64,000 nucleotides of DNA from a virus (lineage: Duplodnaviria > Heunggongvirae > Uroviricota > Caudoviricetes), in the IMG/VR virus record IMGVR_UViG_2861079508_000001; one strand, given 5' to 3'. Made by a program: the position numbers and the translations under genes. Of this stretch, positions 9,139-57,295 are shown one piece after another; positions within the stretch are counted from its first letter, which is position 1; every line of letters starts with the position of its first letter. The notes under the pieces were generated by a model. That model had not been told where the DNA came from, did no database searches, and saw nothing but the letters and a program-made list of their open reading frames with translations.

Positions 9139-9155
9139 GAAACAACTTGTTTTCT
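9139..9155. promoter_or_regulatory. motif 1 operator-like palindrome (GAAACAACTTGTTTTCT)
   Basis: Upstream of parA, next to TATATAATTATCG. Confidence 0.5.
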
Positions 9156-28601: not shown

Positions 28602-28928
28602 ATGACTAAAAATACTCGTTTTTCCCCCGAAGTCCGTCAGAGGGCGATTCGTATGGTTCTGGAAAGTCAGGGCGAATATGACTCACAGTGGGCGGCAATT
28701 TGTTCCATTGCCCCAAAGATTGGCTGTACACCGGAGACTCTGCGTGTCTGGGTACGCCAGCATGAGCGGGATACCGGAGGCGGTGATGGCGGGCTCACCA
28801 CCGCTGAACGTCAGCGTCTGAAAGAGCTGGAACGTGAAAATCGTGAACTGCGCCGCAGTAACGATATCCTTCGCCAGGCTTCCGCTTATTTTGCGAAGGC
28901 GGAGTTCGACCGCCTCTGGAAAAAATGA
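28602..28928 (+). CDS. IS3-family transposase OrfA (HTH/leucine-zipper part)
   Basis: 108 aa [23 protein letters not shown]...; I recognise this as the IS629/IS3-group OrfA; ends at an A-run slippery site. Confidence 0.8.
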
Positions 28929-29815
28929 TGCCACTGCTGGATAAGCTGCGTGAGCAGTACGGGGTCGGACCGCTATGCAGCGAACTGCATATTGCCCCGT
29001 CAACGTATTACCACTGTCAGCAACAGCGACATCATCCGGATAAACGCAGTGCCCGTGCGCAGCGCGATGACTGGCTGAAGAAAGAGATACAGCGCGTATA
29101 CGATGAAAATCATCAGGTGTACGGTGTGCGTAAAGTCTGGCGTCAGTTGTTACGGGAAGGTATCAGAGTGGCCAGATGCACTGTGGCACGTCTCATGGCG
29201 GTTATGGGACTTGCCGGTGTTCTCCGGGGTAAAAAGGTCCGTACGACCATCAGCCGGAAAGCCGTTGCCGCAGGCGACCGCGTAAACCGTCAGTTCGTGG
29301 CAGAACGACCTGACCAGCTGTGGGTGGCTGATTTTACTTACGTCAGCACATGGCGGGGCTTCGTCTATGTGGCGTTCATCATTGATGTGTTTGCCGGATA
29401 CATCGTGGGGTGGCGGGTCTCATCGTCTATGGAAACGACATTCGTGCTGGATGCTCTGGAGCAGGCGTTATGGGCCCGTCAACCGTCCGGCACAGTCCAT
29501 CACAGTGATAAAGGTTCTCAGTATGTATCGCTGGCCTACACACAGCGGCTTAAGGAAGCCGGATTACTGGCATCAACAGGAAGTACTGGTGACTCGTATG
29601 ACAACGCGATGGCGGAGAGCATCAATGGCCTTTACAAAGCGGAGGTAATACACCGTAAGAGCTGGAAAAACCGGACAGAAGTGGAGCTGGCCACACTCAC
29701 GTGGGTGGACTGGTATAACAATCGACGATTGCTGGAAAGGCTGGGCCATATCCCACCGGCAGAAGCAGAAAAAGCTTATTATGCTTCCATCGGAAACGAT
29801 GATCTGGCAGCCTGA
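28925..29815 (+). CDS. IS3-family transposase OrfB (DDE catalytic part)
   Basis: 296 aa overlapping orfA in the -1 frame at AAAAAATGA; integrase-type DDE core (e.g. [16 protein letters not shown]). Confidence 0.8.
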
Positions 29816-49266: not shown

Positions 49267-49659
49267 GTCTTTAACTCACTCCAACAACATAAAAATAAGC
49301 GCCAAAATAACGCCATAGACGCGCTTTTATATCCTTACCAGTACATGCCCATTACTTAACACATTAACGCGCTTAAAACGCATTATATTGCGCTATAGAG
49401 TATGGTTAATCATTGGCTTTTAGTCTTGCTATGTGATCCGCGTTTATTTGTCGGTGCGGATCGGCATTTTGTTTTGTTCTGTATCCGCTCGCGTATTATG
49501 TGCGCGTAATTTTTCACATAATCACACCACTTAATCACGTATGTGATTATGCTACGAAAGAAATCTGGATGTCTCAGGCGACGAAAGTCATCATAATTTC
49601 CCCCGCTCACCTGTCCGACAACCGCTGGTTGGATTCCACCAGCTTCCCGATGTTTTTTC

Positions 49660-49800
49660 TACACAAAGGCGAATGCAGCCGTTTCCCGAAAAAATCCTGG
49701 CCGTTCCCCGTCGGCTCATGAATACGTTCCTCGCCGTTTCTGAAAATTTCCCTGCGGCAGCTGGTGGCTATAGAGAAAGGGCCGTTTCTGGCCCTCTTCT
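49660..49800 (+). repeat. iteron-like direct repeat array A (unit ~CCGTTTCCCGAAAA)
   Basis: At least 4 degenerate copies (AGCCGTTTCCCGAAAAAA, GCCGTTCCCCG, CGCCGTTTCTGAAAATTTCCC, GCCGTTTCTGG) in a region without convincing ORFs. Confidence 0.5.
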
Positions 49801-50322: not shown

Positions 50323-50636
50323 TGTTGGTGTTAATTATCGTTGTACGAATAAGGCGTCAAAGTGGAAAGTTGCGGTAGCCGGACGGGAACAGGTGGGTTT
50401 GTCGGTTGCCTGGAGGTAAGAGGTTGGTGTTATTAGCCTGAGGGAAACAGGATGGTCATTTAAGACCACCAATGCTGGTGGCCTTAATAATTATCGCCCG
50501 ATTACGCTAAGGATCTTTTCCTCAACTGATTTGTTGTTGCGACTAAACTGCCTTGCGTATCTGATGACAGAAGAGGCGTTTTGCTTTCTGACCATCTCGG
50601 CTCTTTCCTTCAGGCGTTTCTTGAAATCGCCCATAT

Positions 50637-52458: not shown

Positions 52459-52474
52459 AACAAGATGTTTTCTT
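52459..52474. promoter_or_regulatory. motif 1 variant (AGAAAACATCTTGTTT)
   Basis: Between GATAAT and RBS AAGGA of gene 52116..52445. Confidence 0.5.
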
Positions 52475-52789
52475 AATGGTGTTATTATCGCAATAACGCA
52501 CAGGCGAAAAAGGATTTTATTCCGGTGAATGTGGTTTTGGCAGTGAGTTTTCAGGTTCAGTACAGAGTACACTTTTTACATTATTCTGATTTAGTGGCCG
52601 AAGATGGCTGGTGGGCAGAATAATCATCTCCCCGAAAACCTACTGAAATCGATTGTGACCCGTTGGCTGTCTGGCACAATTACGCTGTAACTGGGCATTC
52701 AGAGGGAATCCAGCGGTAAGTAGGTTCGCCTTCACGTGAGCGCCTCTCTTCTTCCCGCACATTACAGGTGGGTAGCCGCAACTCTCCCT

Positions 52790-52950
52790 CTCGCTATGCC
52801 GGTACGCCGCCGTTCCTGAACCGGCATCGAGCCTTTTCCCGAAATCCACACAGGCAACTCGACCGTTTCCCTGAAAACCTCCAGCCGTTCCCCGAAGGCA
52901 ACCCAGCCGTTTCTGTAGCGGGATGCAACCTTTTCCCTGTATGGACCGAA
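52790..52950 (+). repeat. iteron-like direct repeat array B (same unit family)
   Basis: ~6 tandem ~22-bp units (CCGTTCCTGAACC, CCTTTTCCCGAAATCC, CCGTTTCCCTGAAAACC, CCGTTCCCCGAAGGC, CCGTTTCTGTAGC, CCTTTTCCCTGTATGG). Confidence 0.5.
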
Positions 52951-53049
52951 GGCTGACCGTAGGGGTGTTACGGGGGATAAAATCAGGAGTTGAATAAATA
53001 CGAAAAAGGAGGCGACACCCCTCCTTCCCTCCCCACTTATACATACCTG

Positions 53050-53900
53050 GCTTCTTCGCTATACATGTTGTGTTTTATCTGTCTCAACCTCTCTATAGGC
53101 GTTAATGCTCACTCCTTCCAGAATGTTCTATACGGCAACTATTTCTGTTGGTGAATTGGGTGTGTTGTTCTCTCTGTCGGTGTATGTGGTTTCGTTCGTT
53201 TTGCGGTGGTTCTTCTATGGGGTGTTCTCGTCGTTTTGGTGATTGTTCTTCTCCGTGTATGGAGTAATGGCAGGTGGGCGATTCCTTTCGTTGTTGTGTT
53301 TGAGTTGTTTGTCTGGAGTGTGTGAAAGGCTTTTGCAGTTATTCGTGTATTGGGTAATGGCATTTCCCGTGATTGTTGTGTTTCGTGTCTTTTGGGATTG
53401 AGAGAAACCTTGCGGTTACAGGCTTCGTTGGGGTTTCAGTGATTCTGGTGTTCTTCGCTGTTTGGGGAATGGCGTGTCGTGGGTATCGCGCGTATGAATG
53501 TTTTCGGATTGCCTGTGAAAGTTAGGTTGGTTGTCCGGTAGCCTGGGGAGAAGAGGTGGGTCTTTTCGGTAGCCTGCCATAAAGAGGTTGGTTGTTTTTG
53601 GAAATGGCATTTGTGTTATTTAGTTGTTTTGTTATGCCTGAAAATAAGTTGTTTATATGGTTGTGTAACGCAACGGGAGCGATTTTGAGCGTGTGTTTTT
53701 GTTGGTAGTGTGTTGGGTCGTCTGTGGTGAAAATTGGACGCTGTGGCGCTGTCTGCTGCGTAGAGTTACGGGTATAAGCAGTGATGTGTGAAAACGTCAA
53801 TTTTTTAGACCAAATCGGGTGAAAGCGTTGATGTTTCGTTGATCTGTTATTCAGTTGTTTTCTTGATTGTATAAACAACTATAACTTATTGATATTTAAG
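53050..53900 (+). repeat. GT-skewed non-coding region with periodic GGnTAATGGCA-type repeats
   Basis: Plus strand almost exclusively G/T-rich; recurring TGGAGTAATGGCAGG, TTGGGTAATGGCATTT, GGGGAATGGCGTG, TGGAAATGGCATTTG at ~85-130-bp spacing; also CGGTAGCCTGGGGAGAAGAGGTGGGT duplicated and related to 50400-50430. Confidence 0.5.
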
Positions 53901-54009
53901 GATGTGATTGCGGGTATGGAAGAAGAGTAGTGGCGATCAACGGATTCTTATAGAAAAGAATCAAATTGTGACCGCCATTATCAACTGATTGATTTGTTTA
54001 CTTGTGTAG

Positions 54010-55104: not shown

Positions 55105-57138
55105 TTACTTAACCTGGTGGCCAGGTTTAGCACCAGCATCCGGGCTTAACAGGAAGATATCTTTCCCGCCGGGGCCAGCAGCCATCACCATGCCTTCAGA
55201 GATACCGAAGCGCATTTTACGTGGTGCCAGGTTAGCCACCATAATGGTGTGACGACCAATCAGTGCCTGTGGATCTGGATAAGCGGAACGGATGCCTGAG
55301 AAGACATTACGCTTTTCACCACCGAGATCCAGCGTCAGGCGAAGCAGTTTGTCAGAACCTTCTACAAACTCTGCGTTTTCAATCAGCGCCACGCGCAGGT
55401 CAACTTTGGCGAAGTCGTCAAAGGTGATAGTTTCCTGAATCGGGTCGTCAGCCAGTGGGCCAGTTACCGGTGCGGCTGTGGCTTTCACTTCTTCTTTGGA
55501 TGCTTCCACCAGTGCTTCAACCTGCTTCATATCGATGCGGTTATACAGTGCCTTGAACGGATTCACTTTATGGCCCAGCAGCGGTTGCTGGATACCATCC
55601 CAGGTCAGTTCTGTATTCAGGAATGCTTCTGCACGTTCAGTCAGTTTCGGCAGTACCGGTTTCAGGTACGTCATCAGCACGCGGAACAGGTTAATGCCCA
55701 TAGAGCAAATCGCCTGCAGATCGGCATCGCGTCCTTCCTGCTTTGCCACCACCCACGGAGCCTGTTCATCAACATAGCGGTTAGCCAGGTCAGCCAGTGC
55801 CATGATTTCACGGATAGCTTTGCCAAATTCGCGGCTTTCCCATGCTTCGCCAATCACTTCAGCGGCATCAGTAAAGGTTTTGTACAGTTGCGGGTCAGCC
55901 AGTTCGCTTGCCAGCACGCCGTCAAAACGCTTGTTGATAAAGCCTGCATTACGGGAGGCCAGGTTAACCACTTTGTTAACGATATCGGCATTCACACGCT
56001 GAACGAAATCTTCCAGGTTGAGATCGATATCATCAATGCGCGAAGAGAGTTTCGCAGTGTAGTAGTAACGCAGGCTGTCGGCGTCAAAATGATTCAGCCA
56101 GGTGCTGGCTTTAATAAAGGTGCCGCGAGACTTGGACATCTTCGCGCCGTTCACCGTCACATAGCCGTGAACAAACAGGTTGGTCGGCTTGCGGAAGTTG
56201 CTGCCTTCCAGCATGGCAGGCCAGAACAGGCTGTGGAAGTAAACGATATCTTTGCCGATGAAGTGGTACAGCTCGGCGGTGGAGTCTTTCTTCCAGTATT
56301 CGTCGAAGCTGGTAGTGTCGCCGCGTTTGTCGCACAGATTCTTGAAGGAACCCATGTAGCCAATCGGCGCGTCCAGCCAGACGTAGAAGTATTTGCCCGG
56401 TGCGTTCGGAATTTCAAAACCGAAGTAAGGTGCGTCACGGGAGATATCCCACTGTTGCAGGCCAGATTCAAACCACTCCTGCATTTTGTTTGCCACCTGC
56501 TCCTGCAACGCACCGCTGCGGGTCCATGCCTGCAACATTTCGCTGAAAGAAGGCAGATCAAAGAAGAAGTGTTCGGAATCACGCATTACCGGTGTAGCGC
56601 CAGAAACCACTGATTTCGGCTCGATCAGTTCCGTCGGGCTGTATGTCGCGCCGCAGACTTCACAGTTATCGCCGTATTGATCCGGCGCTTTACATTTCGG
56701 GCATGTGCCTTTTACAAAACGGTCCGGCAGGAACATGCCTTTTTCCGGGTCGTACAGCTGAGAGATGGTGCGGTTTTTAATAAAACCGTTCTCTTTCAGG
56801 CGAGTATAGATAAGCTCGGACAACTGACGGTTCTCTTCGCTGTGCGTCGAGTGATAGTTGTCATAGCTGATGTTAAAGCCTGCGAAATCAGTCTGATGTT
56901 CCTGACTCATTTCGCCAATCATCTGTTCCGGTGTGATACCAAGCTGCTGTGCTTTCAGCATGATTGGCGTACCGTGGGCATCGTCGGCACAGATGAAATT
57001 AACCTCGTGGCCGCGCATTCGCTGGTAACGAACCCAGACATCAGCCTGGATGTGCTCCAGCATATGGCCGAGGTGGATTGAGCCGTTAGCGTACGGCAGC
57101 GCGCACGTCACCAGAATTTTCTTCGCGACTTGGGTCAT
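55105..57138 (-). CDS. metG: methionine--tRNA ligase
   Basis: 677-aa product from the ATG at 57136-57138 (track ORF is 43 codons longer from an upstream alternative start); HLGH and KMSKS class-I motifs; sequence I recognise as Escherichia-type MetG. Confidence 0.95.
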
Positions 57139-57295
57139 AGTAGGCATTACTTCTTTGTAGTGAAAAGGGGCTTGATAGTAACAAAATGGCCTTATGTCTG
57201 CCATGTGATAACAGCATTTCTCATAAATGATTAAATGTCGTAGCTGGAGTACACTACAAGGCGACAATTGCGCAAATTAAAATAAAGGAGACGGG

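Follow-up and report, generated by a model that had tools for sequence, protein, structure and literature searches.

What is the role of some 850 bp of DNA that carry no evident gene and in which the two strands differ strongly in base composition? In the present study, this question is addressed for positions 53050-53900 of a Caudoviricetes record, IMGVR_UViG_2861079508_000001, of which a stretch of 64,000 nucleotides (nt), hereafter the window, was analysed. Comparison with relatives identified the window as an SSU5/pHCM2-like phage-plasmid of Escherichia coli. An earlier inspection of the letters alone (the sequence-only reading) had described the stretch as a structured non-coding locus and had offered three options, namely an origin, a signal related to single-stranded DNA or a cluster of non-coding RNAs transcribed from the minus strand. 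The function of the element is inferred from its sequence throughout this study, and we suggest, as a tentative answer that falls somewhat short of probable, that its action comes closest to that of a Rho-dependent terminator region backed up by an intrinsic stop.

The strand asymmetry is confined to a single place. In a skew scan with 200-nt windows, a G+T fraction of at least 0.64 was reached only at 53041-53900, with a maximum of 0.785, and elsewhere in the 64 kb the mean was 0.498 (standard deviation (sd) 0.041) and the maximum 0.635, which bears out the strong GT skew originally claimed for 53050-53900. The plus strand of the latter interval contains 16.8% A, 13.7% C, 29.6% G and 39.8% T, compared with 25.3% A, 24.7% C, 22.2% G and 27.9% T for the whole window. 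The GC content across the region is 42-48%, and the GC skew changes from -0.16 to between +0.34 and +0.48 at approximately 53050. The description of the plus strand as almost devoid of A and C was overstated, since the most extreme 100-nt window still holds 5% A and 13% C. Read in the minus sense, the C/G ratio is 2.15 over 850 nt and up to 2.94 in 300-nt windows, the highest value in the window, and it is 1.6-2.0 in four relatives of other lineages. In addition, G runs were nearly confined to the plus strand on inspection of the sequence, and TT dinucleotides showed an 11.4-bp periodicity exceeding that of shuffles.

The skew was kept at the homologous place in every relative fetched, from Klebsiella, Salmonella, Citrobacter, Enterobacter and Cronobacter as well as E. 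coli. Over the skewed stretch, a divergent E. coli plasmid shares 76% of its nucleotides with the window and the relatives of other genera share 61-67%, and the base composition is stationary between lineages. For the interval 52600-54000, the identity is 99.7% with plasmid pSJC33-2 and 96% with phage Cyrano. Of 5426 complete E. coli genomes, 242 contained a match to this interval, in each case on a plasmid of about 110 kb, and a search in distant mode returned 838 plasmid records from Klebsiella, Escherichia, Enterobacter, Salmonella, Citrobacter and Cronobacter together with 12 phage records; every matching record examined was of the SSU5 type. No description of the region was found in the literature searched. 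The skewed stretch lies inside a 1.55-kb gap (52464-54009), and the genes that border this gap are on the minus strand on both sides, not only in the window but also in all annotated relatives. The gap is gene-free in the NCBI PGAP annotation of the E. coli and Citrobacter relatives, and a few records have one short open reading frame (ORF) there.

If the gap encoded proteins, these would be Pro/Thr/His-rich peptides from minus-strand ORFs or hydrophobic plus-strand peptides started from a GGAG-TA-ATG-GC motif. ORFs of 50-134 amino acids (aa) are indeed present on both strands, some depositors have called and annotated them, the motif resembles a Shine-Dalgarno sequence with a stop/start overlap, and an ORF length of 18 aa is kept between the E. 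coli and Salmonella lineages. However, the ratio of third-position to first- and second-position diversity was 0.6-1.8 in each of the eight ORFs considered on the two strands of the gap, compared with 3.5 and 4.5 in two control flanking genes. Indels among close relatives were mostly of 1 nt (54) or 2 nt (10), approximately one third of the gaps across genera were multiples of three, and no period-3 signal was observed in the cross-genus conservation. Minus-strand coding was rejected on the absence of a codon signature and the frequent frameshifting indels. Small hydrophobic plus-strand peptides and mini-ORFs coupled through TAATG were rejected as well: the peptides that follow the motif are as short as 7 aa in some relatives and as long as 100 aa in others, the TAA of the motif does not consistently close a coupled ORF upstream, and on the minus strand the ATG is ACG in most relatives. 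The rarity of stop codons results from the skew itself. We regard a coding function as scarcely credible, in agreement with the sequence-only reading, which had also held that the stretch is not degraded coding sequence. The latter point is upheld by the conservation of the stretch across relatives and by its constraint. In an alignment of 28 E. coli-lineage loci and the window, nucleotide diversity (pi) was 0.055-0.064 in the skewed body and 0.038-0.044 in the best motif block and a 31-bp repeat array, compared with 0.082-0.115 at the third codon positions of two neighbouring genes. Because the diversity of the body lies under that of the third positions, of which it is about half, the skewed stretch is, on this sequence comparison, under purifying selection at roughly the level of average coding sequence.

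Which strand, then, might be read? Folded as minus-sense RNA, the 850 nt of the skewed body give -0.143 kcal/mol per nt, compared with -0.301 +/- 0.031 kcal/mol per nt in 49 other 850-nt windows (z = +5.1), and are the least structured 850 nt in the window; the plus-sense value is ordinary (-0.260 kcal/mol per nt). When 52995-53895 (901 nt) was compared with shuffles, neither strand folded better (z = -1.2 minus-sense and +1.1 plus-sense), and a global RNA structure was rejected. The body is the opposite of the structured locus that had been supposed. The analysis gave no evidence for a cluster of separate small RNAs, and the covariance-model search that the sequence-only reading had called for (Rfam 15) returned no match in the region at gathering thresholds and two chance-level hits at E <=10. 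Some structural support, from folding predictions, was obtained only for the hairpins at both ends and for two helices predicted to close the region.

The first of these, a two-tier hairpin, begins 33 nt past the stop codon of the upstream minus-strand gene (54010). Its minus-sense folding gave z = -4.7 in the window and -2.2 in Salmonella, where the plus-sense version is unfolded (z = +1.0) because G.U pairs turn into A.C. It is more stable in the minus sense in seven of eight variants, and its inner arms differ among the E. coli, Salmonella and Klebsiella types with the pairing retained in each. The hairpin at the other end was formed in 29 of 29 variants, its 5' arm being purine-rich and its 3' arm pyrimidine-rich every time, and was more stable in the minus sense in 26 of 26 (mean -13.2 vs -7.9 kcal/mol plus-sense). 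It occupies 53029-53003 and is followed by the U tract UUUUUCGUAUUUAUU; terminator scans detect it in the window and at the homologous Klebsiella site, and in both a G+C-rich hairpin stands directly before a U tract, as in intrinsic terminators. Fixed-column covariation was not possible for either hairpin, because the purine and pyrimidine arms pair in lineage-specific registers, and each variant was folded separately instead. RNAalifold also predicted nested long-range helices, which would connect the sequence that follows the 5' hairpin with that preceding the 3' hairpin. Four long-range helices were tested on 31 sequences: 86.9% of the cells pair, compared with 35-54% when the partner was slid, and 32 cells show double-sided changes, compared with 1-9. 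The best supported are H1, in which three of seven pairs change on both sides, 88% of the cells are paired and many U.G pairs are valid in the minus sense alone, and H2, in which 94.8% of the cells are paired and six of the 31 sequences have U-A in place of one C-G pair; H3 and H4 are disrupted in the E. coli lineage. This support is modest, since the prediction and the counts draw on one alignment, made up of related sequences. Several observations independently favour the minus strand as the sense strand, and among the three options proposed earlier a minus-strand transcript fits best, with boundary hairpins that favour a minus-sense RNA and flanking genes that are on the minus strand.

The position of the element is equally specific. 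The conserved block starts approximately 10-55 nt past the stop codon of the upstream gene, whichever gene this is, as it differs by lineage. Backbone homology stops at 53984-53999, so the element lies exactly at the junction with the cargo, and the cargo/backbone junction is its site in every lineage examined. Gene order and strand would suit a putative path of transcription from the upstream gene in all annotated relatives, and no terminator-like site was found between the upstream gene and the element in a scan of the window.

The classic loading substrate of Rho is an untranslated, C-rich, G-poor and unstructured RNA after a stop codon, as at rut sites such as lambda tR1. Because a C-rich, structure-free and untranslated RNA would follow a stop codon here and a hairpin with a U tract stands at its end, we propose, as the reading that we currently favour without great confidence, that the element might be a Rho-loading and termination insulator between the cargo and an early operon. 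The G+T skew would be the DNA image of an untranslated minus-strand RNA of about 0.95 kb, co-directional with all neighbouring genes. Transcripts from the upstream cargo gene would pass its stop codon and form the two-tier hairpin (53977-53931); the following ~850 nt of C/A-rich, G/U-poor, unfoldable and ribosome-free RNA would then load Rho; and transcripts that escape Rho would reach the purine/pyrimidine hairpin (53029-53003), a putative back-stop that is terminator-like in the E. coli and Klebsiella versions. The outcome would be a one-way transcriptional stop at the cargo/backbone junction, with no read-through into the repressor-controlled early operon that starts from 52500. For rut function, at least approximately 80 nt with C well above G are expected, and the C excess of the minus sense extends over 850 nt; the RNA is expected to be unstructured and untranslated, and here it folds 5 sd above the window mean and shows no coding signature. 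The likeness to Rho-dependent terminators such as lambda tR1 and trp t' extends to the position directly after a stop codon and to the arrangement of hairpins, since the hairpin that precedes the C-rich RNA may be likened to lambda boxB, which separates rutA from rutB, and a hairpin for pausing or termination comes after that RNA. However, the element exceeds a usual rut region about tenfold in length, is conserved in sequence across six genera and contains tandem and dispersed repeats and operator-like sites, and its Rho dependence is a prediction.

If the element is a dedicated insulator, this would explain how arbitrary cargo, with promoters of its own, can be inserted without upsetting the circuitry of lysogeny and lysis, and would provide a design rule for how these phage-plasmids stay evolvable. 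Phage-plasmids of the SSU5/pHCM2 type are often encountered in E. coli, Klebsiella, Salmonella and Enterobacter, and resistance genes, e.g. CTX-M-15, are present on some of them. The features on which the reading and its alternatives depend are collected in Table 1.

Table 1. Positions of the skewed stretch and of associated hairpins, helices, repeats and putative regulatory sites in the 64,000-nt window.
Feature	Position	Strand	Remarks
Skewed stretch (core of the finding)	53041..53900	(-)	Plus strand G+T-rich; if read from the minus strand, a C/A-rich, G/U-poor, nearly structure-free untranslated RNA
Two-tier hairpin	53931..53977	-	9-bp outer stem GGCGGUCA / UGAUCGCC, internal loop, 6-7-bp inner stem
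Terminator-like end hairpin	52993..53029	-	GGGAAGGAGG-loop-CCUCCUUUUU and U-rich tail; left edge of the skew
Helix H1, 5' strand	53924..53930	-	Predicted by RNAalifold to pair with 53028-53034, just upstream of the end hairpin
Helix H2, 5' strand	53771..53778	-	CUUAUACC, predicted by RNAalifold to pair with 53036-53043 (GGUAUAAG)
Helices H1 and H2, 3' strands	53028..53043	-	Mutually adjacent, stacked on the end hairpin
GGnGTAATGGCA / GTAATGGC motif, copy 1, good	53261..53272		Reads GGAGTAATGGCA; nearly invariant in 11 lineages
GTAATGGC motif, copy 2, good	53351..53362		Reads TGGGTAATGGCA
GTAATGGC motif, copy 3, degenerate	53464..53474		GGGGAATGGCG here, GGGTAATGGC in relatives
GTAATGGC motif, copy 4, degenerate	53599..53609		TGGAAATGGCA here, GGGTAATGGC in relatives
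Array B	53505..53597		Three tandem 31-bp units, core GTAGCCTG-N6-AGAGGTGGGT
Array B, second copy	50375..50456		Upstream of the promoter of a 160-aa gene (50286 to 49804)
Array A	52804..52940		Five or six CCGTTTCCC-type repeats, period ~22 bp, just outside the skewed region
Array A, second copy	49670..49760		Downstream of the 160-aa gene, between two opposed Chi sites; similarity z = 10.5
Chi site GCTGGTGG	52607..52614	+	Kept in most lineages
Promoter-like site overlapping the two-tier hairpin	53957..53984	-	TTGATA-16-GATTCT here, TTGACA-16-GAGGAT in 8 other lineages; conserved in 11/11
Promoter-like site, extended -10	52653..52680	+	TTGTGA-16-TGgCACAAT; points into array A and the skewed region
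Left border	52464..52520	-	Putative extended -10 promoter (TGcGATAAT) and operator for a small-gene operon (52445 to 49804); kept in 11/11
Operator-like sites	53614..53660		Half-site GTTGTTTTGTT and palindrome AAATAAGTTGTTT, AAACAAnTTGTTT in relatives
Operator-like half-site GTTGTTTTCTT	53845..53885		Beside a conserved plus-strand promoter-like TTGAC(T/A)-16-TTTATT, weak in the window

Three kinds of repeats were observed in and beside the skewed stretch. Four recurring copies of a short motif had been reported by the sequence-only reading, and four sites were confirmed, at spacings of 90, 113 and 135 nt, of which two are good and two degenerate; relatives have up to six copies at irregular spacings of 40-140 nt. 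Copy 1 sits in the best-conserved block of the region, TTCTTCTCCGTGTATGGAGTAATGGCAGGTG, with a local pi of 0.038. The tandem duplication noted earlier also exists, with a period of 31 bp rather than 27 bp. Its units (53536-53566, 53567-53597 and a degenerate third at 53505-53535) have a mutual likeness of only about 74%, all lineages have GTAGCCTG unchanged in two copies, and the local pi of the array is 0.044. The number of units varies among close E. coli relatives, with one more in pSJC33-2 and two other relatives (L136 and L144) and one fewer in another (L145), and one additional 31-bp unit is the sole difference between pSJC33-2 and the window over 1.4 kb. Likewise, a single 22-bp unit of array A, in the vicinity of 52869-52911, is deleted in two relatives (L135 and L152). 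The echo of the tandem unit that had been noticed near 50400-50430 is genuine, with five pattern matches at 50375-50456 compared with 0.05 expected and a direct similarity of z = 13.7.

Arrays A and B are each present twice, colinear and about 680 bp apart. The first pair (49670-49760 and 50375-50456) brackets the 160-aa gene, a member of phrog_1641 of unknown function, and its operator-bearing promoter, and the second (52804-52940 and 53505-53597) brackets the 3' half of the skewed region and the end hairpin. In the second module the putative skewed RNA holds the position of the gene, which fits a minus-sense transcription unit. The skewed part was rejected as a decayed paralogue of the 160-aa gene, to which no similarity was found by tblastx. 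By eye, a purine/pyrimidine hairpin in the style of the end hairpin is present past the stop codon of that gene. An RNAalifold suggestion that the two arrays are inverted repeats or form a long plus-sense duplex was rejected, as their Watson-Crick complementarity is at shuffle level (z = 1.0-1.4), and the apparent pairing between A and B in plus-sense RNA is due to base composition. Other known repeat families were also considered. The core of array B, CGGTAGCCTG, equals positions 3-12 of the RfaH ops element GGCGGTAGnnTG on the plus strand; however, matches with <=2 mismatches numbered 45 in the window compared with 36.7 expected, which is not above chance, and no plus-strand operon lies immediately downstream of the ops-like site in annotated relatives. 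Type III antitoxin repeats and a CRISPR array were rejected on the low likeness of the 31-bp units and the lack of a Pfam hit in the neighbours. Matches to a 15-nt motif on viral contigs and to a 16-nt gapped pattern on genome contigs were at chance.

Putative promoters were located by a position-weight-matrix scan on 11 lineages. The promoter-like site at 53957-53984 has a weak -10 element, and the inverted repeat of the two-tier hairpin could alternatively be read as a promoter plus operator. The plus-strand site at 52653-52680 was found in 8 of 11 lineages (7.1-10.9 bits), and the other three have a plus-strand 80-aa ORF there; if it is a real promoter, it may give an antisense RNA converging on the minus-sense transcript. 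At the left border, the putative promoter of the small-gene operon (52500-52486) has a layout common to other operator-bearing promoters. The palindrome AGAAAACAAnTTGTTTTCT, with the core AAACAAnTTGTTT, has 15 matches in the window compared with 2.4 expected, including those at 9146, 46147, 50313, 52464, 53623, 53854, 54963, 58586, 62259 and 62988. In the usual arrangement, a small minus-strand gene has the palindrome in the interval from a GATAAT-type -10 element to its ribosome-binding site, and in some cases two copies flank the promoter. Of the 18 core sites of pSJC33-2, 10 fall between 53 and 66 kb. The set looks like the predicted operators of a master repressor.

Several of these observations weigh against the insulator. 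A Rho terminator requires just 80-100 nt or so of C-rich RNA, not 850 nt, conserved motifs or tandem repeats, and the model leaves unexplained both the length of the tract and the sequence conservation of the GTAATGGC and 31-bp repeats, which may be protein-binding sites in DNA or RNA layered on top. The transcribed strand is a predicted one, the Salmonella-type end hairpin is without a U tract, and the conserved plus-strand promoter-like site at 52653-52680 aims into the region, from where a plus-sense RNA would be C-poor and hence Rho-resistant. The presence of array B upstream of an ordinary promoter as well argues for a site that works at the DNA level. Moreover, the conservation of the end hairpin and of H1 and H2 suggests that a full-length RNA is made and folded, which would suit a trans-acting RNA better. 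According to that explanation, a stable minus-sense product of about 0.95 kb, its ends guarded by the 5' two-tier and 3' terminator hairpins and clamped by H1 and H2, would expose a single-stranded C/A-rich loop of about 730 nt with four to six GCCAUUAC and three anti-Shine-Dalgarno-like ACCCACCUCUU motifs, and would bind, in the manner of a sponge or scaffold, an RNA-binding protein, for which Rho is a candidate, or G/U-rich RNAs. The conserved hairpins of minus-sense preference at both ends, the nested helices with their excess of pairing and double-sided changes over slid partners, the repeated motifs that are more conserved than the background and the extreme deficit of structure, which leaves the motifs accessible, are all consistent with this idea. 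On the other hand, no promoter of its own could be convincingly placed upstream of the 5' hairpin in the scan of 11 lineages, Rho should truncate an untranslated C-rich RNA, the helices carry the modest weight noted above with H3 and H4 broken in the E. coli lineage, and Rfam offers no match. Runs of ARN, a proxy for the distal face of Hfq, are at shuffle level, on which an Hfq sponge was rejected. A trans-acting RNA seems unlikely to us, if worth keeping in mind, and would be a new kind of phage regulatory RNA; its more specific form, in which the clamped loop is a decoy that titrates Rho, another single-strand RNA-binding factor or a G/U-rich small RNA, is improbable, and such a phage-plasmid decoy would loosen termination or post-transcriptional control throughout the host. 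The sponges CsrB/CsrC, RsmY/Z and CrcZ are similar in that several accessible copies of a short motif occur in a non-coding RNA ending in a terminator hairpin, but they are 100-400 nt long and present GGA in hairpin loops or A-rich CA motifs, whereas the RNA considered here would be about 0.95 kb long with the motif GCCAUUAC; membership in the CsrB/CrcZ type was rejected, with 6-11 GGA per 850-890 nt and the ARN runs at shuffle level. G/U runs of the plus strand at 53288-53299 (minus-sense AAACACAACAAC) and 53369-53387 resemble the R1 seed of the host small RNA GcvB, to which the minus-sense RNA would be complementary over 12 nt; this putative complementarity is confined to the E. coli lineage, being absent from the Salmonella and Klebsiella versions, which speaks against a trans-acting role, and the idea of a GcvB sponge or mimic was set aside.

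The direction of the skew can also be read from the other strand. In a lytic-phase origin of the R-loop or strand-displacement type, a plus-sense G-rich RNA started at 52653-52680 would form a stable hybrid with the C-rich template, from which the G+T-rich strand would be displaced, arrays A and B and the GTAATGGC repeats would bind an initiator, and the G+T richness would reflect in part the deamination of an often single-stranded strand. Consistent with an origin, the GC skew flips at about 53050 with the appropriate polarity, the G runs are almost solely on the plus strand, the three kinds of direct repeats vary in copy number, the plus-strand promoter-like site is conserved, the TT periodicity exceeds that of shuffles, and the phage-plasmid encodes RNase HI, a DnaB-like helicase, a primase and Pol III alpha. 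A promoter directed into a strongly G-rich non-template strand is likewise known from ColE1 RNA II, T4 oriF/oriG and the mitochondrial D-loop, the mitochondrial heavy strand is similarly G+T-rich and strand-asymmetric, and the RNase H encoded by the element's own plasmid adds to the likeness. However, the tracts that form hybrids in ColE1 and T4 are far shorter than the skewed one, 850 bp would be very long for an unwinding region, and the conserved boundary hairpins favour the opposite (minus) sense. No DnaA box was found in the region even when one mismatch was allowed, and there is no clear AT-rich unwinding element; arrays A and B are not significant inverted repeats, the replication genes lie across the circle from the element, and the cumulative skew, calculated over the whole plasmid, does not turn there. 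The sequence-only reading's option of an origin is further reduced by the plasmid origin itself: the skewed region maps to 55.6-57.0 kb of pSJC33-2, about 28 kb from the RepFIB initiator, a RepB-family gene at 84.3-85.5 kb that is flanked by at least 13 GTATGCTGTCAGCGGT iterons unlike the repeats described here, and a RepFIB origin or copy-control locus was rejected on these grounds. Iteron origins (RepFIB, P1 oriR/incA) are similar in their arrays of direct repeats, which vary in copy number and are spaced by helical turns (22 and 31 bp here), but the element has repeats unrelated to its own RepFIB iterons and no adjacent initiator gene. An R-loop origin is doubtful on balance, and would supply the missing lytic origin of the family. 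Finally, the region might be a cis-regulatory one, with operators and repeated sites for phage regulators and the composition as a by-product of the motifs. Operator palindromes or half-sites at 52464, 53614-53660 and 53845-53885, which belong to the overrepresented family described above, the recurrence of array B upstream of another promoter and the conservation of promoter-like sites on both strands would agree with this. Yet the motifs make up a minority of the 850 bp and the skew is uniform between them, the GTAATGGC spacing is irregular, and the composition is retained at 33-39% divergence from other genera, so that protein binding as the sole explanation appears decidedly improbable.

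Further observations concern the surroundings of the element. The proteins of the neighbouring genes belong only to PHROG families of unknown function without a Pfam match, and searches with the flanking proteins returned close relatives only. The cargo just to the right of the skewed stretch includes metG, a full-length methionyl-tRNA synthetase gene (55105-57267, minus strand), beside which apbC is found in pSJC33-2. Chi (GCTGGTGG) occurs 14 times in the 64 kb compared with 1.6 expected, e.g. at 49636(-), 49760(+), 50474(+) and 52607(+), and three plus-strand copies lie inside the intergenic repeat arrays beside the skewed stretch. The full pSJC33-2 has 24 copies, with the minus strand dominant at 3.6-41.5 kb and the plus strand dominant at 48.9-55.6 and 86-105 kb. 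At 28883-28999 on the plus strand, the ALIL pseudoknot (Rfam RF01497, 120 bits), the frameshift signal of IS3-family transposases, was matched, which indicates that the window contains an IS3-type element.

Traces of rearrangement were observed in and near the element. Large Klebsiella plasmids that are not phage-plasmids (L003, IncFIB/IncU, NZ_CP029739.1, 4900-5560) hold a remnant of its right half, corresponding to 53536-53997, which is nearly identical to the Klebsiella phage-plasmid version and adjoins a DUF262 gene and a type I restriction-modification system; a match on a Klebsiella IncFIB(K) megaplasmid was rejected as an independent context, being merely such a remnant of the Klebsiella phage-plasmid version. 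In ten relatives (L143, L144, L151-L155, L161, L163 and L164), a 378-nt insertion is present after 52471, where it separates the left-border promoter from the operon's first gene. In five others (L149, L150, L160, L162 and L168), the BLAST match to the window ends at approximately 53276-53292 and is followed by a more divergent right half, and this switch places recombination breakpoints inside the element, at its most conserved block.

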